Positions 105-25,715 of a stretch of 26,649 nucleotides of DNA are shown here, in pieces (the first letter of the stretch is position 1; every line of letters starts with the position of its first letter). Under the pieces are notes generated by a model. That model had not been told where the DNA came from and searched no databases. It saw only the letters and a program-made list of their open reading frames with translations. The stretch covers positions 1 through 26,649 of IMG/VR virus record IMGVR_UViG_2778261572_000013. One strand, 5' to 3'. Origin of the DNA: a virus. Taxonomy: Duplodnaviria; Heunggongvirae; Uroviricota; Caudoviricetes. The translations under genes were made by a program, and so were the position numbers.

Positions 105-1157
105 TTACGGGGTAATGCCAACCGCTGCCGCCACTTTGTCGCCACTTGGCAGCGTTGCCAGAGGATTGAAACGGAGCGCCGTTTCCAGATGATCTGGTGC
201 CAGATGTGCGTAACGCATAGTCATTTTTATATCGTGGTGTCCGAGAATTTTTTGTAAGGCGAGAATGTTTCCACCCGACATCATGAAGTGCGCCGCAAAC
301 GTATGGCGCAGAACGTGTGTGAGTTGACCGCGAGGGAGCACGATAGACGTTTTTTCCATCACGGATAAAAATTGAAAATAGCAGTCTGTAAAGAAATTGA
401 ACCCATCAAGCGCCATGATCTCTTCGTAAAGCTCTTTACTGATAGGGATGCTTCTGTTTTTCTTCCCCTTCGTTCTGACAAAGGTAATTCGGTATTTGGT
501 CACCTGTGAGCGGGTAAGATTTACGGCTTCACGCCAGCGTGCACCTGTGCTTAAGCATATCTTAACTACCAGTGCCAGAATTGGGTCCTGACGTTTGCAA
601 TCAGCCAGCAATTCAACAATCTGCTCATGGGTAAGCCATGCCATCTCTTTTTCTGCGATGGTGAATTTTCGCATGTTCTCCAGTGGGTTCGGATACGACC
701 ATTCGCCCAGACGGGATAGTTCGCTAAAAACACTACTTAGATAGCTTTGCTCCAGGTTAATGGTGACCGGGCTTGCTCCTTTCTTCCATTTCTCGCTGAA
801 GTAGATCTCGCCTGTCAGGCGTTTATCTCGATAGTGGGCAAACATTTTAGAGGTGAGATCGGTTGCAAGAGGATTGCCCAGAGCGTCAACCATCAACAGC
901 AATTTGTCATAGACATGCTGCCCAGCTGTCAGAGATTTACCATGTAGTTTGAACCATAGCTCAACCACGTCTTTCAGTGTTCGACGATCCACTGATTCAC
1001 CCAGCCAGGGCTTTGCTTCGGTTTCTTCCATCGTGTGGCGCTCAAAAGCCAGAGCTTCGCCTTTGGTGGCGAATTGTTTACGCACCCGACGCCCACTACG
1101 TCCGGCGGGGTAACATTCGCAAAGCCATTTTCCTGTGGTGAGTTTTCGTACTGCCAT
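105..1157 (-). CDS. int: Tyrosine recombinase / phage integrase (P2 Int-like)
   Basis: 350-aa ORF. C-terminal HxxR...H...Y catalytic region (LTHVLRHTFAAHFMMSGGNILALQKILGHHDIKMTMRYAHL) is typical of tyrosine integrases; first gene of the prophage as in P2. Confidence 0.93.
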   Translation of the reverse strand: MAVRKLTTGKWLCECYPAGRSGRRVRKQFATKGEALAFERHTMEETEAKPWLGESVDRRTLKDVVELWFKLHGKSLTAGQHVYDKLLLMVDALGNPLATDLTSKMFAHYRDKRLTGEIYFSEKWKKGASPVTINLEQSYLSSVFSELSRLGEWSYPNPLENMRKFTIAEKEMAWLTHEQIVELLADCKRQDPILALVVKICLSTGARWREAVNLTRSQVTKYRITFVRTKGKKNRSIPISKELYEEIMALDGFNFFTDCYFQFLSVMEKTSIVLPRGQLTHVLRHTFAAHFMMSGGNILALQKILGHHDIKMTMRYAHLAPDHLETALRFNPLATLPSGDKVAAAVGITP

Positions 1158-1230: not shown

Positions 1231-3000
1231 TCATACGTCAGGGGTAATCCAGTCGACTAAAGCCTCAATACTTTCGAAATCTGCACAGATATCTGAAAGA
1301 GGTTGTGTATCTGCTTTTGTTTTGAAATCAGCCCATACTGATTCATTTTTTTCTGTAAGACCCAAATGGTTTTCTATCGAACCATTTAGCCAAATCCAAA
1401 TATTTGCATTTCTCAGTTTTGCGGCTAATGATGACAAAAATTCTCTGGCGCCGGGCTTTTGAGACATAATAGCAAATGCTTCAGCTGCGGTAGTGTTACT
1501 ACCCTTTGTAGGCAAACCGGATCCATCGAGAGTGCATTCTCCATTAGCATGCATACTTCTCAAGATTTCTTTTAGTCGTAAAATATCCTCGTCATTATGT
1601 TCTAAGAAGTTGTTCCTTATTGCACCGCGGAACGCAAAATCTAAATCAACAATTGCTTTTGTAGGTATATCCATTGAATTTAGAATTTGCATCGTTTTAG
1701 ATATACTTTCAACGGACCCTGTTTCAATTAGTGCTATTTGCATCTGACCTAATGTTTTATTTTTAACTTTGTTAAAAATAAATGGGAGCAGAGTAGTCTC
1801 TGTTTTACCTTCTGTTAGTATTACATTGTTAGCAAACAAAACTTTTGAAGACTGTGTTAATGAAAATAAATGGGTTGCTTGTGCTGGTCGTTGTTCGATT
1901 ACTTTATTGACTGCTTCTTTTAATGTTAATCTGCAATGAGTGCCACGCTGACTGTTTTTTCTGATTAACACAGTGTCTTTTGCTAAGTCAGAGGTAATCA
2001 TTTGAGATGAATGGGTAGAGAAAATTATTTGATATCCATGATGAGATAGTGTTTTTAGAGATTCTCTAATTTGTTCGATAGCAAATGGGTGAAGATATAA
2101 CTCAGGTTCATCTATTAACAGTAGAGTAGTTGTTTTAATATCATCACCGTTGGTTATATCAGCTAAATGTCTTATTAGAGCCATCTGAATCGAACGCTGT
2201 GTGCCATGACCATAAGAAGAACAGTCACGAGCAATGCCGGGAAATGAATCTTCATATACTTTTACAGTCCCTGATTTAAATATATCCTTGAAGTCAGGGA
2301 GTTCGAAGTGTAGTTTTAAACTTATCCCAGGGAAGAAATCAGCAACTTTACTACTTATTGAATCATCAATATCATTGAGGTCCGATATTCGTTTATTACC
2401 GGTTGCAGTCATTCTTCTATTAACGGCATTTAAATGGCTTAGTATCCTTTGAGTGTGCTTCTCTTCTATTTTGCAACTCAATTCTGCCAGCAACTTACCT
2501 ATTGTAGTTCCTGTTTTTGATTTTGAAGAATCATCCGCTGCATTTTCCATTGCACCTATACGTATTGGGTCTGGAAATAAAGCTTTTATCGCATTCTCAA
2601 TACCCGTTGGTGATGTCCTGAATTCGTTATTTTCTGGGTTTTTAATTAATAATCTGACGTCTTTTGCACTTTGAGCACCAACAGGCTGTTGACGTTTAAA
2701 TATCAATACCCCATCAATAATGTAGGGTGAAATTCTAGTTCTGTTTTCTTCTGTTAAAGCTGACAAAATATCTTCAGTAATACCCTTAACTGTACCTATA
2801 ACTTCTATAGGGTTATCTGGATTAGTATAATCATCAGAGGACAAAAGTTTTTTCTTAAAAAGCCATTCAATAGCATTTAAAATCGTTGACTTACCAGCAT
2901 TGTTGTAACCGATTAAAGGCGTGAATGAAGAAAAATTGATATCAATATCTTTGCAAGATCTAAAGTTTTTTATAGAAATCTTTGAAAGATGATGATTCAT
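1231..3000 (-). CDS. OLD-family ATP-dependent endonuclease (ABC-type ATPase N-terminus plus Toprim C-terminus)
   Basis: 589 aa. Walker A GYNNAGKST, signature-like HGTQRS, Walker B LLLIDEPELYLHP, H-loop FSTHS, then Toprim-like E (ILTEGKTE) and DxD (VDLDFA). Size matches P2 Old (586 aa). AT-rich relative to the phage core. No adjacent helicase gene. Confidence 0.75.
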   Translation of the reverse strand: MNHHLSKISIKNFRSCKDIDINFSSFTPLIGYNNAGKSTILNAIEWLFKKKLLSSDDYTNPDNPIEVIGTVKGITEDILSALTEENRTRISPYIIDGVLIFKRQQPVGAQSAKDVRLLIKNPENNEFRTSPTGIENAIKALFPDPIRIGAMENAADDSSKSKTGTTIGKLLAELSCKIEEKHTQRILSHLNAVNRRMTATGNKRISDLNDIDDSISSKVADFFPGISLKLHFELPDFKDIFKSGTVKVYEDSFPGIARDCSSYGHGTQRSIQMALIRHLADITNGDDIKTTTLLLIDEPELYLHPFAIEQIRESLKTLSHHGYQIIFSTHSSQMITSDLAKDTVLIRKNSQRGTHCRLTLKEAVNKVIEQRPAQATHLFSLTQSSKVLFANNVILTEGKTETTLLPFIFNKVKNKTLGQMQIALIETGSVESISKTMQILNSMDIPTKAIVDLDFAFRGAIRNNFLEHNDEDILRLKEILRSMHANGECTLDGSGLPTKGSNTTAAEAFAIMSQKPGAREFLSSLAAKLRNANIWIWLNGSIENHLGLTEKNESVWADFKTKADTQPLSDICADFESIEALVDWITPDV

Positions 3001-3043: not shown

Positions 3044-3982
3044 TTATTGTATTGTTAAGATAATGCTGGCTATAATTTGAATATCCTCAATGGAACACTC
3101 AAAATCCTTACTCCCACCAGAAACAAGAATTTTGTTCTTAGGTAAACGAGTTAACTCTTTTAAAGATAACTCATTGTCAATTCCTACTAACCATTTTCCA
3201 TCTCTAATTAGGTGAAATTCTTTATCACATATGACATGTTTTTCTCCATTGCTTACAAACATCAAGCTGCTAGTTTCTTGCTTCGGAAGTAGACACCGAT
3301 CCATGGATAAAAAACCTGACTCGACAAGCACGCCATTGACCAAATTGAACTTATTTAAAATTACAGTGTTTTCTTCTTGTGAACTATTTGGTGTTTCGAT
3401 TCCTGTAACTAGCCAGGCGAGATCCGCTTTGGTTTCTAATGCGCATTTAATCACCCAATCCGCAGGGAAAGAATCTCGCATGTATCGTGTGGCTAATGTG
3501 CTTTTTGAAATACCAAGGTGGTCGGCTAAGGCTTGGCGGGTTTTAAACCCGTAAGCATTAACAATCCTCTCTATCGCGGCTTTTCCTCCGTTAGTAAGCT
3601 CAATGTGATTCTCAATGCGGCGCTTAAAGGATGATTGATGAGCGTTGCTGTTAAACCCCTCATGTGGGACTGTTTCATCATGTTGTTCCACATAAGGGGG
3701 GAAACTTTCTTCTGCATTGTTAGAACCAAAGGCCAGCCATTCTAGGGATGCGCCAGTTTCCATTGAACATATAACAACCCAATCAGCAGGGAAGGTATCG
3801 CGTGCATATCTATTAGCCATTGTGCTTTGTGAAATACCAAGATGCTTACAGAAGGCTTGGCGTGATTTGAAACCATAGGCCTTGAGTATCCTCTCAATGA
3901 CTTTTTGCCCTCCACGATTCTGCATGACCATAGCTTTCAGACTATCTTCAATATGGCGAAATGTGATTTTTTGAGTTGACAT
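3044..3982 (-). CDS. 186 CI-like immunity repressor with tandemly duplicated N-terminal DNA-binding domain
   Basis: 312 aa. Residues about 29-85 and 137-193 are paralogous (IERI.AYGFK.RQA..HLGIS.ST.A.RY.RD.FPADWV..C..ET.A.L.WL), resembling the phage CI repressor N-terminal domain. Divergent from the cox/cII operon, as expected for the repressor. Confidence 0.7.
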   Translation of the reverse strand: MSTQKITFRHIEDSLKAMVMQNRGGQKVIERILKAYGFKSRQAFCKHLGISQSTMANRYARDTFPADWVVICSMETGASLEWLAFGSNNAEESFPPYVEQHDETVPHEGFNSNAHQSSFKRRIENHIELTNGGKAAIERIVNAYGFKTRQALADHLGISKSTLATRYMRDSFPADWVIKCALETKADLAWLVTGIETPNSSQEENTVILNKFNLVNGVLVESGFLSMDRCLLPKQETSSLMFVSNGEKHVICDKEFHLIRDGKWLVGIDNELSLKELTRLPKNKILVSGGSKDFECSIEDIQIIASIILTIQ

Positions 3983-4069: not shown

Positions 4070-4291
4070 ATGACCCCTAACATTTCAATAACTCTGAATA
4101 CGCCACACGTCACAATTGAGCGTTATAGCGAACTTACTGGTCTTTCTATCGACACCATCAACGATATGCTGGCTGATGGTCGTATCCCTCGCCATCGCCT
4201 TCGGAAAGACAAGAAAAGAGAAAAGGTAATGATCAACCTTGCTGCTCTTACCGTTGATGCACTTACTGATTGCAATGTTGTATTCAACTAG
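4070..4291 (+). CDS. Small DNA-binding protein, Cox/Apl-like (excisionase/switch regulator) candidate
   Basis: 73-aa basic protein, first gene of the rightward early operon, with an HTH-like segment ([25 protein letters not shown]). Assigned by position and size only. Confidence 0.5.
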
Positions 4292-4323
4292 TTCCATTTT
4301 GGGATGCATCAGGAGTGTCGACT

Positions 4324-4833
4324 ATGTTTGATTACCAAGTTTCCAAACATCCACATTTTGATGAAGCCTGTCGTGCATTTGCATTGCGCCACAACTTGGT
4401 GCAACTGGCAGAACGTGCAGGTATGAATGTGCAGATTCTGCGGAACAAGCTGAATCCAGCTCAACCTCATTTATTAACCGCACCAGAAATTTGGTTGCTT
4501 ACTGATCTGACAGAAGACTCAACACTGGTAGATGGTTTTCTGGCACAGATTCACTGCCTGCCATGTGTTCCGATTAATGAGGTGGCAAAAGAGAAACTGC
4601 CGCATTACGTCATGAGTGCAACAGCAGAGATCGGGCGTGTAGCTGCAGGCGCGGTATCTGGCGATGTAAAAACCAGTGCAGGCCGTCGTGATGCTATCAG
4701 CAGCATTAACTCTGTAACACGACTGATGGCGTTGGCTGCTGTTTCATTGCAGGCCCGTTTACAGGCTAACCCTGCGATGGCGAGTGCAGTTGATACCGTG
4801 ACTGGCCTCGGTGCTTCATTTGGTTTGCTGTGA
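4324..4833 (+). CDS. Phage regulatory protein CII-like (186 CII/CP76 family)
   Basis: 169 aa starting at MFDYQV with an AGGAG RBS 5 nt upstream; position after the apl-like gene as in 186. Family assignment is from memory of the CP76-type sequence, not verified. Confidence 0.55.
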
Positions 4834-6721: not shown

Positions 6722-7575
6722 GTACCATCCTGAAATGGGCGGGTAATAAAACTGCCATTATGTCCGAACTGAAAAAACATCTTCCTGCTGGCCCGCGACT
6801 GGTTGAACCTTTCGCGGGTTCCTTTGCTGTGATGATGGAGACGGATTACCCCAGCTATCTTGTTGCGGATATTAATCCTGATTTAATCAACCTCTATAAA
6901 AAGGTTGCTGCTGATTGCGAGGCGTTTATATCTCGTGCCAGAGCTTTATTTGAGGAAGCAAACAGGGAGTTGGCTTATTACAACATAAGGCAGGAGTTTA
7001 ATTACTCCACTGAAATTACTGATTTCATGAAAGCGGTATATTTCCTGTATCTCAATCGTCATGGTTACCGTGGGTTATGTCGTTATAACAAGAGCGGGCA
7101 TTTCAACATTCCATACGGTAATTATAAAAATCCGTATTTCCCTGAAAAAGAAATTCGCGCATTTGCAGAGAAAGCCCAGCGAGCAACGTTTATCTGCGCC
7201 AGCTTTGATGAAACGCTGGCGATGCTGCAGGTGGGGGATGTGGTGTATTGCGATCCGCCTTATGACGGTACGTTTTCCGGCTATCACACTGACGGCTTCA
7301 CTGAAGATGACCAGTATCACCTGGCATCTGTTCTTGAATATCGATCATCAGAAGGTCATCCAGTCATTGTTTCTAACAGTGACACATCCCTGATCCGTTC
7401 GCTGTATCGAAATTTCACTCACCACTACATCAAGGCAAAACGCAGCATCGGCGTAGCAGCTGGTGAGAGTAAATCTGCAACAGAAATCATCGCTGTTTCT
7501 GGGGCGCGCTGCTGGGTGGGATTTGATCCTTCGCGTGGCGTGGATAGTTCTGCCGTGTACGGAGTGCGTGCATGA
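6718..7575 (+). CDS. dam: DNA adenine methyltransferase (Dam/D12-class N6-MTase), orphan
   Basis: 285 aa from ATG 6718 (AGGAGG RBS). N-terminal KWAGNK AdoMet motif and catalytic DPPY motif. No partner restriction enzyme nearby. Confidence 0.85.
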
Positions 7576-9986
7576 GCCATGCTGATATGAACAACTGCAG
7601 CGGCTTTAACGAGGCCGCCGCAGCATTCTCATGGAACAGCCCGAAAAAGGCTATTAACCCTTATCTGGACCCGGCGGAAGTTGCGCCGGTTTCTGCGCTT
7701 TCAAACCTGATCACTCTGTACGCTGCCGATAACGAGCAGGAACAACTGCGCCGCGAGGCACTGAGTGATCAGGTTTGGGAGCGTTATTTCTTTAATGAAT
7801 CCCGTGATCCTGTCCAGCGCGAAATGGAGCAGGATAAGCTCATTAGCCGGGCAAAGTTGGCGCATGAGCAGCAGCGTTTTAACCCGGACATGGTCATTCT
7901 GGCAGACGTTAACGCCCAGCCTTCCCATATCAGCAGGCCGCTGATGCAACGTATTGAATACTTCAGCAGCCTTGGCAGGCCAAAGGCTTATTCCCGCTAT
8001 TTGCGTGAGACGATTAAGCCATGTCTGGAACGGCTGGAGCATGTACGCGACAGTCAGCTATCCACTTCTTTTCGCTTTATGGCAAGCCATGAAGGGCTGG
8101 ACGGCCTGCTGATTCTGCCTGAAATGAGTCAGGATCAGGTGAAACGCCTGTCCACCCTTGTTGCTGCGCATATGAGCATGTGCCTTGATGCAGCTTGTGG
8201 CGATTTGTATGCCACCGATGACGTTAAGCCAGAAGAAATCCGCAAGACATGGGAAAAGGTGGCAGCAGAAACCCTGCGACTGGATGTCATACCGCCTGCG
8301 TTTGAGCAACTCCGCCGGAAAAGAAACCGCCGTAAACCCGTGCCCTATGAACTCATTCCGGGTTCGCTGGCGCGTATGTTGTGCGCCGATTGGTGGTACC
8401 GGAAATTATGGAAGATGCGTTGCGAATGGCGGGAAGAGCAGTTGCGTGCTGTTTGCCTGGTCAGCAAAAAAGCATCTCCCTATGTCAGCTATGAAGCCGT
8501 GATGCATAAACGTGAGCAGCGCCGTAAGTCGCTGGAGTTTTTCCGTTCTCATGAACTGGTGAACGAAGACGGCGACACGCTGGACATGGAGGATGTGGTA
8601 AACGCCAGCAGCAGCAACCCTGCGCATCGCCGCAATGAGATGATGGCCTGTGTTAAAGGTCTGGAGCTTATCGCGGAAATGCGCGGTGACTGCGCCGTTT
8701 TCTACACCATCACCTGTCCGTCACGTTTCCATTCCACGCTAAATAACGGCAGGCTCAACCCGACCTGGACAAATACGACGGTAAGACAAAGCAGTGATTA
8801 TCTGGTCGGCATGTTTGCTGCATTTCGTAAGGCGATGCACAAAGCCGGATTGCGCTGGTATGGCGTGCGGGTGGCTGAGCCGCATCATGACGGTACAGTT
8901 CACTGGCACCTGTTGTGTTTTATGCGCAAAAAAGATCGCCGCACCATTACTGCTTTGTTGCGTAAGTTTGCCATTCGTGAAGACCGCGAGGAGCTGGGTA
9001 ATAACACGGGACCACGCTTTAAGTCTGAGCTGATAAACCCGCGCAAAGGTACGCCAACAAGCTACATCGCGAAATACATCAGTAAGAACATTGACGGGCG
9101 TGGTCTGGCTGGCGAGATCAGCAAGGAAACGGGTAAATCCCTGCGTGATAACGCTGAATACGTTAATGCCTGGGCGTCTCTGCATCGTGTTCAGCAATTC
9201 CGCTTCTTTGGAATTCCGGGGCGTCAGGCTTACCGTGAACTGCGATTGCTGGCTGGTCAGGCGGCAAGGCAACAGGGGGACAAAAAAGCAGGTGCGCCGG
9301 TACTGGATAACCCGCGCCTTGATGCAATCCTGGCTGCTGCTGATGCTGGTTGTTTTGCCACCTACATCATGAAGCAGGGCGGCGTACTGGTTCCCCGCAA
9401 ATATCACCTCATCAGAACTGCTTATGAAATCAACGAAGAACCGACCGCATATGGCGATCACGGTATTCGTATTTATGGCATCTGGTCACCCATTGCAGAG
9501 GGCAAGATCTGCACTCATGCGGTGAAGTGGAAAATGGTTCGTAAGGCCGTTGACGTTCAGGAGGCGGCAGCCGACCAGGGCGCTTGCGCCCCTTGGACTC
9601 GTGGCAATAACTGTCCCCTTGCTGAAAATTTGTACCAACAAGGGAAAGACAAATCAGCTGATGGAGATACCAGAACGGATATCACCCGCATGGATGACAA
9701 GGAGTTGCACGATTACCTGCACAGTATGAGCAAAAAAGAGCGCCGGGAACTGGCTGCAAGGTTACGCCTGGTGAAACCGAAACGGCGTAAAGACTACAAA
9801 CAGCGAATTACAGACCATCAGCGACAGCAGCTCGTCTATGAACTGGAGTCCAGAGGATTTAATGGCAGCGAGAAAGAGGTCGATTTACTCCTTCGCGGCG
9901 GCAGTATTCCGTCAGGAGCAGGTCTGCGTATCTTCTATCGGAACCAGCGTTTGCAGGAAGATGATAAGTGGCGAAACCTGTATTAA
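7572..9986 (+). CDS. A: Replication initiation endonuclease (P2 gpA-like rolling-circle initiator)
   Basis: 804-aa ORF at the P2 gene A position, start overlapping the dam stop. Contains an HxH-type motif (GTVHWHLL) and a Tyr-containing region ([10 protein letters not shown]) consistent with Rep-type nickases. Confidence 0.85.
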
Positions 9987-10078
9987 TTACGCGGGTTAAC
10001 AATTCGTGCTCTTAATAATACCAGGCATATCAGGCTGATGAACGTAAAAAAACGTTTTACATCAGTAAGATTATTATA

Positions 10079-10098
10079 TACTGTAAATATAAACAGTG
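10079..10098. promoter_or_regulatory. LexA (SOS) box
   Basis: taCTGTaaatataaACAGtg matches the CTGT-N8-ACAG consensus, with promoter-like hexamers just upstream, about 45 bp before the 10140 ORF. Confidence 0.7.
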
Positions 10099-10139
10099 GT
10101 TATATATACAGTATTGCTTGTGGTGTCATAGGAGGAAAG

Positions 10140-10328
10140 ATGCAGGACTATTTTTTGGAGTCTTTGAAGCTCCAGCGCATTGATTTTTTTCTTAAGCTTG
10201 TAGCGGCTAGTGAGTGTAGTGATGAAGAGAAGGGGCTGGCTTTGCAGTGGGTTTCTGAACTGACAGATGAACTCATGGCAAAAATCAGAAGCCACGAATA
10301 CAACCGCTCAATGGATGTCATCAGCTGA
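10140..10328 (+). CDS. Small SOS-controlled protein, possible Tum-like antirepressor N-terminal module
   Basis: 62-aa ORF with strong RBS (AGGAGG) directly downstream of the LexA box; position matches the LexA-controlled tum locus of phage 186 after gene A. Confidence 0.45.
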   Translation: MQDYFLESLKLQRIDFFLKLVAASECSDEEKGLALQWVSELTDELMAKIRSHEYNRSMDVIS

Positions 10329-10338
10329 GGGGACTTTT

Positions 10339-10572
10339 ATGCGCATTGAAATAATGATCGATAAAGAGCAGAAGATTAGCCAGTCTACCCTGGACGCCCT
10401 TGAATCCGAGCTTTACCGCAATCTGCGCCCCCTGTATCCCAAAACGGTAATTCGTATCCGTAAAGGTAGCTCTAACGGTGTGGAACTGACCGGACTGCAA
10501 CTGGACGAAGAAAGGAAGCAAGTGATGAAAATTATGCAGAAGGTGTGGGAAGACGACAGCTGGCTGCATTAA
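10339..10572 (+). CDS. DinI-family protein
   Basis: 77 aa starting MRIEIMIDKEQ, ending WEDDSWLH; resembles DinI (MRIEVTIAK ... WESADDWF). RBS GAGGGGA. Confidence 0.75.
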   Translation: MRIEIMIDKEQKISQSTLDALESELYRNLRPLYPKTVIRIRKGSSNGVELTGLQLDEERKQVMKIMQKVWEDDSWLH

Positions 10573-10842
10573 GAAACGTTGCTGGCGTCTGAACTTGCTT
10601 CTGGCGTCAGCAAGGTTGAACAACGAGCTGTGCGAGGCGTTAGTGTCAATTTGTTACCTTAACCACGATATATGCTAGGAAATTAACAGTTCTTAAGAAA
10701 CCGCTTGCATGATCGAGCGCATTGAACTTAAGTTTAAGTAACGAAATCAACAGATGATATTGTTGTCTAAATTTTAAAGATAATCTGTTGAGGTTGTAGG
10801 CGTCGGAGTGTAGACTTCCGCGCCATGTAAAAAGGGGGAGTT

Positions 10843-11058
10843 ATGTCAAGCATCGCCGCATTTAGCCTGGGTAACCCAGTTGAACGTCTGGCAAGGGTTC
10901 TTAAAGAGAACCAGGACAAACTCAATCTTAGTAAAGATGGTTTTGTGTCCGTAGACTTGTCTAACAAAAGAGCAATGGATGCCATCAAGGCACAGATGGA
11001 TAAGCTTGAAGGCATCAAAACGAGCACTGTAAAAGAGAAAACTAATAGAACCAGATAA
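10843..11058 (+). CDS. Hypothetical small soluble protein (cassette 1, gene 1)
   Basis: 71 aa with strong RBS (AAGGGGGAG). AT-rich. Stop overlaps the next start (TAATG). Confidence 0.55.
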   Translation: MSSIAAFSLGNPVERLARVLKENQDKLNLSKDGFVSVDLSNKRAMDAIKAQMDKLEGIKTSTVKEKTNRTR

Positions 11059-11900
11059 TGGCAACATTACTTTTAGCAGTGATTTTGGTTAGTGGTTTTA
11101 TTTATGTAAACCTATCACTTTCAACAAGATACCGATATAAGCGTTCCAACGGCTGGGACGCTTATTTTTTTGTGGCTGCCTGGGGTATCGTTTTTTTTCT
11201 CCTTGGCGGTTTTTTCACCTTTATTTTGAACGTCAGCGGAGGGTTTCGTTGGCTGGCTAATGCCTTGAATCTAACACCTGACAGTTTTAATGGCATGTTG
11301 TCTTCATCGAAAGACAAACTTCAAAGAATAAATGAAATCAAACAGATAGCATGGGTTATGATTTCAATTGTCCTCGCTGCGATTTCAGGTTTTGGAAATA
11401 AGTTACGCACATCACGTGGAGATCGTCGCTGGGATGCCTTAGCTAAAGCTGTGGGTAATAACGCTTTCGAATCATTACTCATGGAAGCGTCCGCAAGACA
11501 GTTTCCGATCATAGCAACTCTGTCGTCTCGCAAAATCTATGTTGGTCTTGTTACTTGTCCGGCGTTAGAAAACGGGCTTTCAGAGCACCTTGAACTTCTC
11601 CCGATGTTAAGCGGATATCGGGATAAAGATGATCTAACGATTAGTATCACGACTAACTATCACCAACATTATCTTGATAGTGGTGTGATAAGTGGAATGT
11701 CTCGGCTTAATATCGAAGATTTCCGTGTGCTCATACCAAAAGATGAGGTTGAAACAATTTCGTTTTTTGATACTGAGACATATAACAAATTTAAAGAAAA
11801 TGAAGCCAGGGATAGAAAGAGCTGTCGAAAGATTGGTAGTAAAAGTGCATCTTCGCACAGCAAGCGTGCAGCAGATACTGAGTCAAATGATCGTGCATGA
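11058..11900 (+). CDS. Hypothetical membrane protein (cassette 1, gene 2)
   Basis: 280 aa; three hydrophobic segments in the first about 115 residues, then a hydrophilic domain of about 165 aa. Translationally coupled to the 71-aa gene. Confidence 0.55.
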   Translation: MATLLLAVILVSGFIYVNLSLSTRYRYKRSNGWDAYFFVAAWGIVFFLLGGFFTFILNVSGGFRWLANALNLTPDSFNGMLSSSKDKLQRINEIKQIAWVMISIVLAAISGFGNKLRTSRGDRRWDALAKAVGNNAFESLLMEASARQFPIIATLSSRKIYVGLVTCPALENGLSEHLELLPMLSGYRDKDDLTISITTNYHQHYLDSGVISGMSRLNIEDFRVLIPKDEVETISFFDTETYNKFKENEARDRKSCRKIGSKSASSHSKRAADTESNDRA

Positions 11901-11948
11901 CTATGCTGCATGAGATCGCATGATCGTTTGAGGATCGTTTTTGCTAAG

Positions 11949-11972
11949 GCCCGCCAGAACTGGCGGGCTTTT
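11949..11972 (+). terminator. Rho-independent terminator after cassette 1
   Basis: GCCCGCCAG-aa-CTGGCGGGC perfect 9-bp stem followed by TTTT. Confidence 0.7.
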
Positions 11973-12231
11973 GCATAGATCATGCACCTGCATGAAAACT
12001 ACTACATAAAGCGGGCAGGCGTGGCGGGGATACGAGCGCGCGCTGTCGGTATTTTCAAAATTTAAGTAAGATAGTAAATGCAAAATGTGTATCACTCTAT
12101 CGGGTACAGAAAAACCATTCAGAAACTATAATTGAACAGTAACAAACGTGATGATGTTCACTTTTTTAAATTTTTTATATAAACTGATGGGTACTATGAC
12201 AGTAATATGCCAGCTTGCGTGAGAATGAATT

Positions 12232-12696
12232 GTGGAAAAAGAGCTAAATCAAAATCAGATCAGTGAAGTGCAGATTAATGTCTGCCACAAAATCTATGAA
12301 TTTTTTAAGTCTTTAGATGGAGCATCCGATTTCAAAATCGAAACTGAAACCAGTGGCGATGATGGCGATCTAAGTTTTTCTTTTGAGCAATCAAAGACTA
12401 TTTTTAAAGTGGAAGTGCTTTCTACAGAATACTTTAAATTAATTAGAATTATAAATGCATTTGACTTTACCGCAACAAAGTCTATTGAGGAAATGAATTT
12501 ATTAGGCAGGGCAAATCAATTTAATGCATATGCAGTGGGCATTAAGGCTCTGGTTCATACTAAAAAAGTAGGTTATGTTGATTTCTGCGTAGATATATTA
12601 TCTTCTAAAGGTGACGTTAATTCTAGCGATCTTAATTTATCCTTGGTCTTACTAAGAAGTGCGCCAATGAATTTTCTGGCAGTAACTAAGGACTAG
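12232..12696 (+). CDS. Hypothetical acidic soluble protein (cassette 2, gene 1)
   Basis: 154-aa ORF from a GTG start, AT-rich, no recognised motif; followed 10 bp later by the next gene. Confidence 0.45.
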   Translation: MEKELNQNQISEVQINVCHKIYEFFKSLDGASDFKIETETSGDDGDLSFSFEQSKTIFKVEVLSTEYFKLIRIINAFDFTATKSIEEMNLLGRANQFNAYAVGIKALVHTKKVGYVDFCVDILSSKGDVNSSDLNLSLVLLRSAPMNFLAVTKD

Positions 12697-12706
12697 TGAG
12701 GACAAT

Positions 12707-13480
12707 ATGCCAACAAAGCCTAGTTTAGATGAAAATTCAACGTTAAACTTGAAGGCGCAATCTTATTTAAAAGCTGTCTCGGTAGATGCCTCAAATGATT
12801 CTACCCACAATGGATGGAATGCTGATGTAATTATTTTTTTTGTTTTCATTGTTGTTGTAATGGCTCTGACACTATCAAAATGGCTTCAGAATAAAATAGA
12901 TGAATTTATTTCAAAAAAATATTTTAGATGGGTTTTTTCTGGGGTAATTCTTCCAGCGATATCGTTAGGCTTAGCAAGCTACACAACAGCATCAAATCAA
13001 AAATTTGTATACATTGCTACAATTATAGTAAGTCTTGTGATTGGTGAGCGAGCTTCTGCACTGACAGCTGAGAAATCCGAACAACAACTTGAGGCTGAGA
13101 CAGGAAAATTAACTAGCAAAATAAGTGTGCTAGAAGCTGCACATACTAAGGCTTTGGAAAAGAAAGATGCTGAACTTGCAGCTAAAGGTAATGAAATTAG
13201 AGCTGTATCTGATGAGCTTACTAAAAGAGTTGATGAGTTACGTCAGAATTATTTGCGAAGATTGTACGAAATAGCTACAGATCATCAAGAGGCTGATTGT
13301 GTTGTCATTAAATTGAGAGTAAAAGAGGTGGCTCAAGATATTATGGCAACAAGTGGGCTTCTTTTAACTATGGATAGTATTGATTATCAGGTGAGAAATA
13401 ACCAAGTTCCGTTGCCACAGGAAAGTTCAATTGTTTATGAATATGCTATGAAGAATGCTAAAGCTCGAAATCAGCAATGA
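12707..13480 (+). CDS. Hypothetical membrane protein with coiled-coil domain (cassette 2, gene 2)
   Basis: 257 aa with RBS GTGAGGA; three hydrophobic segments (about residues 41-113), then a heptad-like charged region (EKSEQQLEAETGKLTSKISVLEAAHTKALEKKDAELAAKGNEIRAVSDELTKRVDELRQ). Confidence 0.55.
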   Translation: MPTKPSLDENSTLNLKAQSYLKAVSVDASNDSTHNGWNADVIIFFVFIVVVMALTLSKWLQNKIDEFISKKYFRWVFSGVILPAISLGLASYTTASNQKFVYIATIIVSLVIGERASALTAEKSEQQLEAETGKLTSKISVLEAAHTKALEKKDAELAAKGNEIRAVSDELTKRVDELRQNYLRRLYEIATDHQEADCVVIKLRVKEVAQDIMATSGLLLTMDSIDYQVRNNQVPLPQESSIVYEYAMKNAKARNQQ

Positions 13481-23870: not shown

Positions 23871-23917
23871 CAACAAAAAACCCATCAACCTTGAACCGAA
23901 ATGGCGGGGTTGATGGG
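23871..23917 (-). terminator. Rho-independent terminator of ybjL, containing the putative attR core
   Basis: Perfect 10-bp stem CCCATCAACC/GGTTGATGGG followed on the minus strand by U-tract; the 14-mer AACAAAAAACCCAT (23872-23885) is identical to 17-30 at the left end. Confidence 0.6.
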
Positions 23918-24029
23918 CTCCACAAAATGGGGACATCAAAGAAAAGCAGTGGCACTAATTAAGACTGATGCCCTGCGGAAAAGTTCTGCGGTTGTGCAAA
24001 AAAATTTCATTTTCAGGGCAACTTCAGTT

Positions 24030-25715
24030 TTATCCTAATCCTGGCCATACCATGACGATGATTGTCCCTGCCAGCGTCAGCAGGACGTTGGCGATTGCAT
24101 AGGTGCCCGCATAGCCCAGCGCCGGGATGTTACTGCGAGCTGTATCACTGATGATCTCCATTGCCGGCGCGCAGGTACGTGCGCCCATCATTGCGCCGAA
24201 CAACAGTGCGCGGTTCATTCGCAATACATAAGCACCGAACAAGAAACAGATAACCACGGGCACCAGACTGACAATCAATCCGGCAATCAACATCTGACCG
24301 CCAATCGCGCCCAGGCCGTTATTAATACCGCTACCGGCGCTCAGACCAACGCCTGCTATAAACACCATCAAGCCGAACTCTTTCACCATGCTTAATGCAC
24401 CTTGCGGAATGTAACCGAAGGTCGGGTGGTTAGCACGCATAAAGCCCAGCATAATTCCGGCGAATAACAACCCGGCAGCGTTCCCCATGCCGAAACTGAA
24501 TGTGCTGAACTGGAAGGTGATCATCCCGATCATCAGCCCAATAACAAAGAAGGCGCAAAATGCCAGCAGGTCAGTGACCTGGCTGTGAATCGAGATAAAG
24601 CCGATGCGATCGGCGATGGTTTTTACGCGACGGGCATCACCGCTGACTTGTAAAACGTCACCTTTGTTAAGCACGACGTTGTCATCTATCGGCATCTCAA
24701 TCTGGCTACGAATGACGCGGTTAAGGAAGCAACCGTGATCGGTCAACTTCAGTTGTGCGAGACGTTTACCTACAGCGTTATGGTTTTTAACGACCACTTC
24801 TTCAGTGACGATACGCATGTCGAGAAGGTCACGATCGAAAACTTCTTTACCGTTACGGAAGCTGGGATCGAGTCGGGCATGGGCGTCGGGATAGCCTACC
24901 AACGCTATTTCATCGCCCATTTGTAGCACGGCATCACCGTCTGGATTTGCCAGAATCCCGTTACGTCGAATACGTTCAATGTAGCAGCCGGTTTGTCGAT
25001 AAATACCCAGTTCACGCAGATTTTTGCCGTCGGTCCAGGCCACCAGCTCCGGGCCGACGCGATAGGCGCGGATCACCGGTAAATAAACCTTACGGTTGGC
25101 ATCAGTGTCCAGGCCACGTTCGCGGGCGATTTGCTGGGCGCTGGTCTGTAAGTCCTGATGCTGCAATTTCGGCAAGTAACGCGCACCAACAATCAAACTC
25201 ACCAGACCGATTAAATAGGTTAAGGCATACCCGAGGCTCAGATTATCCAGTGCCAGTGAGAGCTGCCTGCTTTCCATGCCGGAATGACGCAGTGTATCGC
25301 CAGCACCGACCAGAACCGGTGTCGACGTCATAGAGCCTGCTAACATACCGGCCGTCAGGCCAATATCCCAGCCAAACAGCTTACCTAACCCTAAGGCGAT
25401 CACCAGCGCACTGCCAACCATCACCAGTGCTAACATTAGGTAATTTTTCCCATCGCGAAAAAAAATGGAAAAAAAGTTCGGTCCGGCTTCGACCCCGACG
25501 CAGAAAATAAACAGCATAAAGCCAAGATTAAGCGCATCGGTGTTAATGCTGAAATGTTGTTGGCCTAATAACAGCGATACGACTAAAACGCCAATGGAAT
25601 TACCCAGTTGGATCGAACCAAGTCGTAACTTTCCGAGACATAGCCCAAGCGCGAGGACCACAAATAATAACAGAATGTAATTCCCATTTAACAATTCGGC
25701 GACGTTTATATTCAC
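24030..25715 (-). CDS. ybjL: Putative transport protein YbjL (AspT/YidE/YbjL family)
   Basis: 561-aa polytopic membrane protein recognised as E. coli-type YbjL from its sequence ([20 protein letters not shown]...), with TM blocks flanking a central soluble domain. Confidence 0.85.

Follow-up and report, generated by a model that had tools for sequence, protein, structure and literature searches.

The 26,649-nucleotide stretch of DNA analysed here (IMG/VR virus record IMGVR_UViG_2778261572_000013, Caudoviricetes; hereafter the window) carries two small open reading frames (ORFs) directly behind gene A, preceded by a near-consensus LexA box. This locus (10055-10572) raises the question of whether it represents the SOS induction switch of the phage, equivalent to the tum operon of phage 186, and whether its two ORFs form a natural pair or are the halves of a split gene. 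A previous interpretation made from the nucleotide sequence alone (the sequence-only reading) had proposed the equivalence to 186 tum and had named both arrangements as alternatives. The window was identified as a 186-like (P2-family) prophage featuring the gene order of the 186, PSP3 and Fels-2 records, and the two ORFs are referred to as tumA (ORF1, 62 amino acids) and tumB (ORF2, 77 amino acids). The tumAB genes follow directly after gpA, where the p95-tum-orf97 operon is found in 186, and the proposed equivalence is supported by position as well as by sequence. With high probability, the region serves a prophage of the 186/Fels-2 type (Peduoviridae) as its SOS induction operon, which would be repressed by LexA and would encode TumA acting against the CI repressor together with the DinI-like protein TumB. 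The results described below concern the sequence anatomy of the locus, its homologies, the conservation of its operator, selection on tumA and tumB and the independence of the two genes.

Operator and Promoter of the tum Locus

The sequence-only reading had placed a LexA box of the form CTGT-N8-ACAG at 10081-10096 within a promoter-like region. The box proved correct to the base: the perfect palindrome CTGTAAATATAAACAG overlaps a predicted promoter upstream of the 62-amino-acid ORF, consisting of the -35 hexamer TTTACA, a 17-nucleotide spacer and TACTGT, a layout like that of 186 p95. A second, overlapping box at 10094-10113 had been missed. The following elements were assigned:

10056-10061, plus strand: TTTACA, predicted -35 hexamer of the tum promoter (which corresponds to p95 of 186), kept in 5/5 Fels-2-type loci while the spacer varies
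10079-10084, plus strand: likely -10 hexamer TACTGT, 17-nucleotide spacer; in the 186 record, the left arm of its own LexA box, TACTGT, is annotated as the -10 element of p95
10077-10082, plus strand: alternative -10 hexamer TATACT, 15-nucleotide spacer
10079-10098, no strand assigned: LexA (SOS) box 1, TACTGTAAATATAAACAGTG, overlapping the -10 hexamer; 17/20 consensus positions, found in 10/10 loci and annotated as LexA site in 186
10094-10113, no strand assigned: LexA (SOS) box 2, CAGTGGTTATATATACAGTA; 16/20 consensus positions, kept in Fels-2, SopEPhi, MLG42 and ST437-OXA245phi4.1

SOS boxes were judged by their matches to the 20-mer consensus and by phylogenetic conservation, and the promoter position was derived from the annotated p95 of 186, whose GenBank record describes a layout like that of the window (TTCACA, 18 nucleotides, TACTGT and a LexA site beginning at the -10 element). 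All eight spacer positions of box 1 are A or T. The 16-mer cores of the two boxes extend from 10081 to 10096 and from 10096 to 10111, sharing the single base G10096. Box 2 is kept in every Fels-2-type locus and is without counterpart in the 186, PSP3, YenM and ESSI-2 types. As far as sequence evidence goes, the locus possesses what is expected of a LexA regulon member, namely a palindrome with an AT-rich spacer in the promoter region.

A match to such a short motif might be fortuitous in AT-rich intergenic DNA, in which case the operon would be constitutive or read from the gene A transcript. The exact motif CTGT-N8-ACAG occurs once in the whole 26.6-kb window, compared with 0.32 expected occurrences. 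However, this single-occurrence statistic, taken alone, is weak because 30 of 100 shuffles of the whole window hold at least one exact copy. A canonical promoter was likewise not called. What speaks against a chance match is the comparison of ten related loci, comprising the window, Fels-2, SopEPhi, PSP3 and 186 as well as Yersinia, Cronobacter, Klebsiella and Escherichia phages and covering seven Peduoviridae genera. The perfect sequence TACTGT-N8-ACAGT was found at the same place in all ten, 36-66 nucleotides upstream of the tumA-like start codon, although the intergenic DNA around it has otherwise diverged beyond alignment. Moreover, the box coincides with the experimentally defined LexA site at p95 of 186 (PMC7708051), and the double operator differs little from those of colicin genes. 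Conservation across the ten loci is decisive for accepting the LexA box as genuine, and a fortuitous match is extremely improbable. By its sequence and by analogy to p95, the tum promoter is predicted to be under LexA control and to be SOS-inducible.

Similarity of the Double Operator to Colicin Operators

In a blastn search of the promoter against plasmids, 988 records were matched. Full-length matches were obtained for seven plasmids, all of which carry copies of the same prophage locus, whereas most of the other plasmid matches listed are approx. 47 nucleotides long (query positions 24-70), show 80-88% identity and originate from small Col-type plasmids. Three plasmids from the latter group (L011, L012 and L013) were inspected. 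The 34-nucleotide double operator of the window (10081-10114) was found to be identical at 30-31 of 34 positions to ColE1-type colicin operators (pColE1-MRE600, pF2_18C_Col and pSS046_spB), the compared segments being 2508-2541 in L011, 2509-2542 in L012 and 2509-2542 in L013. As in the colicin type, the two boxes of the window (CTGT-N8-ACAG and GTGG-N8-ACAG) share one base of their 16-mers, and the whole 34-nucleotide architecture CTGT-N8-ACAGTGG-N8-ACAGTAT is common to both. In L011 and L012, the inspected plasmids with an annotated colicin gene, the operator is located about 45 nucleotides (44-45) upstream of the gene for a pore-forming colicin.

The likeness is confined to the operator, since the flanking promoter and leader of the colicin operators are unrelated to those of the window. 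Moreover, colicin operators drive a colicin/immunity/lysis operon on a plasmid, whereas the operator of the window serves a prophage antirepressor/DinI operon. The similarity may reflect either exchange of the operator as a module or convergence on an optimal LexA site for two dimers. Colicin double operators were described to bind two LexA dimers, resulting in very tight repression without detectable basal expression (PMC2994835). By analogy, the Fels-2-type tum promoter would be tighter than the single-box promoter p95 and would be induced later or at higher levels of damage.

Assignment of tumA and tumB

The 62-amino-acid ORF and the DinI-family gene, which had been proposed to lie 10 bp apart after gene A, were both recovered at the expected positions. 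The transcribed part of the locus comprises the following features:

10130-10135, plus strand: Shine-Dalgarno sequence AGGAGG of tumA, 4 nucleotides 5' of the ATG at 10140; GGAGG is kept in relatives
10140-10328, plus strand: tumA, encoding a predicted 62-amino-acid antirepressor of the Tum-N-terminal type (Fels-2 STM2728 type), based on phrog_698 and hhalign to Tum
10327-10332, plus strand: Shine-Dalgarno-like sequence GAGGGG of tumB, overlapping the tumA stop codon; G-rich equivalents occur in the 10-12-nucleotide intergenic regions of relatives
10339-10572, plus strand: tumB, encoding a 77-amino-acid DinI-like protein, based on Pfam DinI, PSP3 TumB and the C-terminal part of 186 Tum
10575-10617, plus strand: stem-loop just 3' of tumB, without U-tract, predicted by RNA folding (11-bp core stem, 10579-10613), at the position of 186 t95a

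TumA is 96.8% identical to STM2728 of Fels-2 and 90% identical to orf10 of SopEPhi. Among the PHROG families, ORF1 matched phrog_698 (E 5.9e-38), phrog_8554 (E 1.1e-8) and phrog_1993 (E 0.002), the last of which is the family of PSP3 TumA (E 2.7e-32). Residues 1-70 of 186 Tum in turn matched phrog_189 (Tum), phrog_1993, phrog_8554 and phrog_698, with Tum residues 6-44 placed on positions 6-44 of phrog_698 (E 5.9e-6). Furthermore, a 60-amino-acid Yersinia phage protein annotated as "tum protein" matches all four families (189, 1993, 8554 and 698). A profile of the ORF1 family was built from 28 diverse relatives obtained in a HMMER search of 1.84 billion representative proteins. Compared with 186 Tum by means of hhalign, it yielded a probability of 94.9% and an E-value of 4.5e-8, with ORF1 residues 3-44 aligned to Tum residues 3-44. 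The similarity of ORF1 to Tum, the lack of which would have spoken against the sequence-only reading, was thus detected at the profile level, and by these alignments ORF1 is an in-register homologue of the N-terminal portion of 186 Tum.

The features that characterize the Tum/TumA family were accordingly found together at this locus: homology to that N-terminal portion of 186 Tum which is not DinI-like, a promoter overlapped by a LexA operator (on sequence evidence) and a site just 3' of gene A in a genome with 186-type CI, Apl and CII immunity genes. No family was assigned to ORF1 in Pfam, NCBIfam or PADLOC, and a PDB sequence search returned no match. AlphaFold2 predicted a two-helix hairpin (residues 2-23 and 28-61) with a mean predicted local distance difference test (pLDDT) value of 88. 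A Foldseek search of this model against PDB retrieved only non-specific helical hairpins (best E 0.83), the fold being too simple to inform. A literature search on TumA as an antirepressor gave no match. By analogy to 186 Tum, for which this activity is known (PMC7708051), and to PSP3 TumA, for which it was reported by personal communication (PMC3121763), TumA would bind CI, prevent its binding to operators and thereby induce the prophage.

TumB matched the Pfam DinI family PF06183 with an E-value of 6.6e-23 and 81.3 bits (cut-off 24.2), covering profile positions 1-63 of 63, and its alignment with the DinI protein of E. coli (1ghh; E 2.7e-6) spans the full length. The suggested alignment to 186 Tum was confirmed for this ORF: TumB shares 41% identity (E 3e-24) with residues 71-145 of Tum. 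The TumB start falls on an internal GTG annotated in 186 as the start of a 77-amino-acid truncated Tum, which according to a note in that record "modulates SOS induction". TumB is 78% identical to PSP3 TumB, and the protein is identical (100%) to STM2726.1 of Fels-2, the record of which cross-references TumB. Based on this kinship, the most likely role of TumB would be to bind RecA filaments and thereby to modulate SOS signalling.

Downstream of tumB, a terminator scan of positions 9800-11100 found none, and the z-score of the 121-nucleotide hairpin segment is unremarkable (-0.70). The hairpin at 10575-10617 may represent a partial terminator or an RNA-stabilising structure. An Rfam scan of the whole window detected no known RNA in or near the tum locus.

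Gene Arrangement of the tum Locus

It had been left undecided whether the two ORFs are a natural pair or a split gene. The fused form does exist, as both parts reside in one protein of 146 amino acids in 186, and in PSP3 the two genes are in the same frame at an offset of 186 nucleotides, separated by a stop and one codon. Accordingly, the ORFs of the window might be the halves of a recently broken tum (i.e., a pseudogene), or read-through or frameshifting might be needed to obtain full-length Tum. In the window, the gap between tumA and tumB is exactly 10 nucleotides (10329-10338), and tumB is shifted to the +1 frame with respect to tumA. From start codon to start codon, the offset measures 199 nucleotides for the window and Fels-2, 200 for SopEPhi and one Klebsiella phage and 201 for one Yersinia phage. 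With PSP3 as an exception, tumB therefore occurs in all three frames, which is incompatible with a conserved read-through or frameshift scheme.

Moreover, each gene possesses its own Shine-Dalgarno sequence and ATG, and both are under purifying selection, with ratios of nonsynonymous to synonymous polymorphism (pN/pS) of 0.12-0.18 for tumA and 0.00-0.15 for tumB at pS values of up to 0.55-0.69. The tumA-tumB pair was detected in 1125 of 5426 complete E. coli genomes (about a fifth), 963 of these at an identity of at least 95%, and in phages of Klebsiella, Salmonella, Escherichia and Yersinia (68 records). The HMMER search with ORF1 yielded 67 ORF1-type clusters, nearly all of 50-100 amino acids; no 146-amino-acid fusion with an ORF1-type N-terminus was among them, fused Tum being too distant for a single-sequence search. 

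LexA-boxed tumA-like genes lacking an adjacent DinI gene were observed in ESSI-2 (L006, 1201-1368), ev015 (L007, 1201-1413) and YenM_06.16-2 (L003, 1477-1659), the ORF of ESSI-2 being unannotated in its record. Antirepressor and DinI modules are therefore separable and, to judge from the genomes compared, are fused in 186, adjacent in the PSP3 and Fels-2 types and uncoupled elsewhere. Taken together, selection, separate Shine-Dalgarno sequences, variable frames and the distribution of the pair settle the matter in favour of a natural two-gene operon; there is barely any probability left for a broken tum.

Proposed Induction Mechanism and Counterarguments

The following course of events is proposed for the tumAB operon, in which LexA binding, SOS inducibility and the TumA-CI and TumB-RecA interactions are transferred from 186, PSP3, Fels-2 and SopEPhi. 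In the undamaged cell, LexA dimers would occupy the overlapping boxes at 10079-10113, covering the -10 element and start region of a sigma-70 promoter and keeping it off. Upon DNA damage, activated RecA would promote self-cleavage of LexA, and the promoter would fire, giving rise to a bicistronic tumA-tumB mRNA. TumA, as a helical hairpin, would then bind CI (3044-3982) and remove it from its operators, so that the early lytic operon (apl, cII, fil, dam, A) would be derepressed. TumB, made alongside, would bind RecA filaments and tune the strength or duration of the SOS signal.

Several results weigh against this interpretation. BLASTP of ORF1 against 186 Tum and against PSP3 TumA produced no alignment, so that the homology between ORF1 and Tum rests on profiles, and hhalign against PSP3 TumA alone was weak (E 0.0039, probability 8.6%), albeit in the same register. 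A generic promoter scan of 9800-11100 called no promoter because the -10 hexamer TACTGT is a poor match, fitting TATAAT at only 3/6 positions. TumB stayed below the cut-off of the NCBIfam DinI equivalog NF007893 (42.7 versus 111 bits) and is therefore regarded as a phage TumB-type DinI-like paralogue rather than as an orthologue of chromosomal DinI. Its role is uncertain in view of the Gifsy prophages, in which non-polar dinI deletions had no measurable effect on induction (PMC3121763). Finally, phages encoding a TumA 97-98% identical to that of the window possess CI proteins which are 38-50% identical to the CI of the window, and a near-invariant TumA beside such divergent CI proteins is unexpected for a specific repressor/antirepressor pair.

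Alternatively, ORF1 might be a small, conserved protein that is SOS-induced and serves a purpose other than antirepression, the phage then being induced via something else. ORF1 is annotated as 'hypothetical protein' throughout, including RefSeq and most phage records, its similarity to Tum is seen with profiles, identical TumA is paired with very different CI proteins, and for the Fels-2-type TumA protein itself the support comes from relatives and sequence. Against this, the homology of ORF1 is in register with precisely the part of Tum that is not DinI-like, the PHROG cross-matches are transitive, and both the genomic position and the LexA control of ORF1 are as in 186 and PSP3. As the title of Bunny et al. 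2002 has it, lexA-null lethality in Salmonella is reportedly attributable to Fels-2. For PSP3, antirepressor activity was ascribed to the upstream gene, tumA, by a personal communication cited in PMC3121763, and SopEPhi, with a tumA product 90% identical to that of the window, is described as being induced through Tum (PMC9827884). A different function of ORF1 is therefore considered improbable, and its role as the antirepressor of the operon is preferred.

Conservation of TumA and Diversity of CI

The target of TumA, presumed by analogy to 186 (PMC7708051), is encoded as follows:

3044-3982, minus strand: 186-type CI repressor, 312 amino acids, presumed TumA target (Pfam Phage_CI_repr in two stretches, E 1.5e-58, and Phage_CI_C, E 1.4e-22)

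This protein features two tandem copies of the 186-type helix-turn-helix (HTH) domain (residues ~20-86 and ~131-195) followed by one CI C-terminal domain. Each copy is ~60% identical to the single HTH domain of a related 189-amino-acid CI. An identical 312-amino-acid protein in other E. coli strains is labelled as phage repressor protein CI by PGAP. A 1.1-kb query centred on cI was covered to at least 80% in only 14 of 5426 genomes. Some Klebsiella phage CI matches are likewise in two pieces.

The mismatch between TumA and CI is also seen for WP_001154431.1, the identical RefSeq TumA, which is accompanied by the 189-amino-acid CI of strain DETEC-P881 in one E. coli prophage and by the 312-amino-acid CI of the window in another, these two repressors being 52% identical. 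Either TumA recognises a conserved feature of 186-family CI proteins, or the immunity module recombines freely relative to tum. As a tentative proposal, which is more doubtful than not, the Fels-2-type TumA (at least 97% identical beside at least 4-5 CI types of 38-52% mutual identity, one with duplicated HTH) might be broad-spectrum, and the colicin-like operator might raise the damage threshold above that of 186 and PSP3. If this were true, a single SOS-induced TumA could inactivate the repressors of heteroimmune co-resident P2-like prophages, leading to cross-induction as known for the Gifsy antirepressors.

Prophage Context and Defects

Beyond the tum locus and cI, the following features were annotated in the window:

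105-1157, minus strand: integrase
1231-3000, minus strand: Old-family ATPase/TOPRIM nuclease, full length, between int and cI (PADLOC Old, E 1.4e-234)
4270-4833: CII (CP76)
between CI and gpA: Apl-sized ORF and CII, then Fil, DUF5347 and Dam methylase
7572-9986: gpA (Phage_GPA, E 1.3e-126)
10843-13480, plus strand: four cargo ORFs of 71 (phrog_9843), 280 (phrog_3630), 154 and 257 amino acids at the position of 186 orf97
23872-23950, minus strand: host small RNA gene rybB (Rfam RF00110, 105 bits), just beyond gpD
24030-25715, minus strand: permease gene with Asp-Al_Ex and TrkA-C domains, just beyond gpD

The old gene of P2 is located at the opposite end of the early region, and a related prophage carries a small hypothetical gene in place of the Old nuclease. 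In the short spacer between the old stop and int start codons, a LexA-like motif with one mismatch, CTGTATGTTTGACCAG, was noted at 1191-1206. It is probably due to chance, as 13 one-mismatch matches occur in the window and 8.9 are expected. Approximately 2.9 kb of cargo separates tumB from the minus-strand portal gene, and none of the four ORFs at 10843-13480 had a significant PADLOC or Pfam match. Related prophages harbour other genes at this place (a SieB-family protein and other hypotheticals), which identifies it as a variable cargo slot.

Compared with the prophage of E. coli DETEC-P881, the window exhibits a 1212-bp deletion at ~15150, by which the N-terminal ATPase part of the large terminase and the P/O intergenic promoters were lost, and an 873-bp deletion at ~18045 that removed the C-terminus of gpL, X, the holin and part of the lysozyme. 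A further gap at ~18390 comprises the lysis genes up to gpE, and gpE, the tape measure, U and D come directly next. Genes for lysis, baseplate, fibre, sheath and tube were not detected, the Pfam matches beyond the gpL remnant being restricted to gpE, the tape measure, gpU and gpD. Judged by this gene content, the prophage is defective; induction could derepress early genes and replication, yet no virions could result.

Despite the loss of the lysis genes, most of the tail genes and the ATPase region of the terminase, tumA, tumB and the operator are intact and 97-100% identical to those of intact phages. This might indicate that tumAB no longer serve induction and are kept as an SOS accessory of benefit to the host, for example with TumB damping RecA. 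However, the deletions are possibly recent, as their flanks are 93-98% identical to an apparently complete relative, so that the intactness of the module is uninformative with regard to selection. Moreover, the compared region is complete in the related prophages that other E. coli strains carry. Retention for the benefit of the host is hence rated as unlikely, and the locus is still best understood as an induction operon, here within a defective prophage.

With respect to the insertion site, rcdA and ybjJ flank the int side in related strains. Given rcdA on the int side and rybB beyond gpD, the prophage is located between rcdA and rybB, and rybB may lie at or adjoin the attachment site.

Implications for Prophage Induction

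The tumAB operon would explain how the non-cleavable CI of 186/Fels-2-type prophages is coupled to the host SOS response. In E. coli, Salmonella and Klebsiella, both prophage induction and gene transfer depend on this coupling, an example being the transfer of SopEPhi in the inflamed gut. According to PMC9827884, which cites Diard et al. 2017, inflammation activates RecA and thereby raises the expression of Tum, the antirepressor of SopEPhi. With regard to annotation, the 62-amino-acid 'hypothetical protein' may be renamed as a TumA-type antirepressor. Modest, incremental leads are provided by the double operator of the colicin type and by the mismatch between TumA and CI, and the known picture of the switch remains unchanged.

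Comparison with Known Systems

The closest counterpart of the locus is the split tum locus of Felsduovirus prophages, represented by Fels-2 (STM2728/STM2726.1) and SopEPhi (orf10/orf11), in which the same two genes follow gpA. The double SOS operator of Fels-2 is identical to that of the window at 33 of 34 positions, and the 10-nucleotide gap and the +1 offset are the same. Differences concern the surroundings. The 3' cargo of Fels-2 includes a gene for 243 amino acids (732 nucleotides), exactly as long as 186 orf97, whereas the window carries unrelated ORFs. The CI repressor belongs to a different immunity type. Among the CI matches listed, which do not include Fels-2's own CI, those of SopEPhi and of the Fels-2-like Salmonella phage SE479_1PHIH2 are ~41-42% identical to that of the window. 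Unlike the Fels-2 type, the window possesses a CI with duplicated HTH, and its structural and lysis genes are affected by deletions.

PSP3 (Eganvirus) also carries two genes after gene A behind a LexA box. Its GenBank record describes tumA as 'similar to 5' end 186 tum; UV induction of prophage' and tumB as 'similar to dinI and 3' end of 186 tum'. However, TumA of PSP3 (phrog_1993) and of the window (phrog_698) are only remotely similar, the SOS box is single in PSP3 and double in the window, and tumA and tumB of PSP3 share one frame. In 186, the LexA-repressed promoter p95 likewise follows gene A with the LexA box placed over a TACTGT -10 element, and Tum, a LexA-controlled antirepressor expressed from p95, inhibits CI (PMC7708051), a repressor of the same type as in the window. 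TumA and TumB have their homologues in the N-terminal and C-terminal parts of Tum, respectively, but in 186 these parts are fused in a 146-amino-acid protein, internal starts of which also give a 77-amino-acid DinI-like product. Furthermore, 186 has a single SOS box, and orf97 comes next in the same operon.

A functional parallel is provided by the dinI-gfoA/gftA operons of the Gifsy prophages, which are LexA-controlled and encode a DinI homologue together with a small antirepressor inactivating a non-cleavable repressor (PMC3121763). In contrast to the window, dinI comes first, so that the order is reversed, neither the antirepressors nor the repressors are related in sequence, and the phages belong to the lambdoid instead of the P2-like type. 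In the same study, Lemire et al. 2011 pointed out the significant identity of the second half of Tum to DinI (PMC3121763) and stated that tum is split in Fels-2 and PSP3 into the antirepressor gene tumA and the DinI homologue tumB, citing Bunny, Liu and Roth 2002 and a personal communication of G. E. Christie (PMC3121763). The locus of the window is hence an instance of a system that is already known, with proteins identical or near-identical to those of Fels-2. To this system, the present analysis makes the modest additions of a double operator, a mismatch in conservation between TumA and CI and a copy within a defective prophage.

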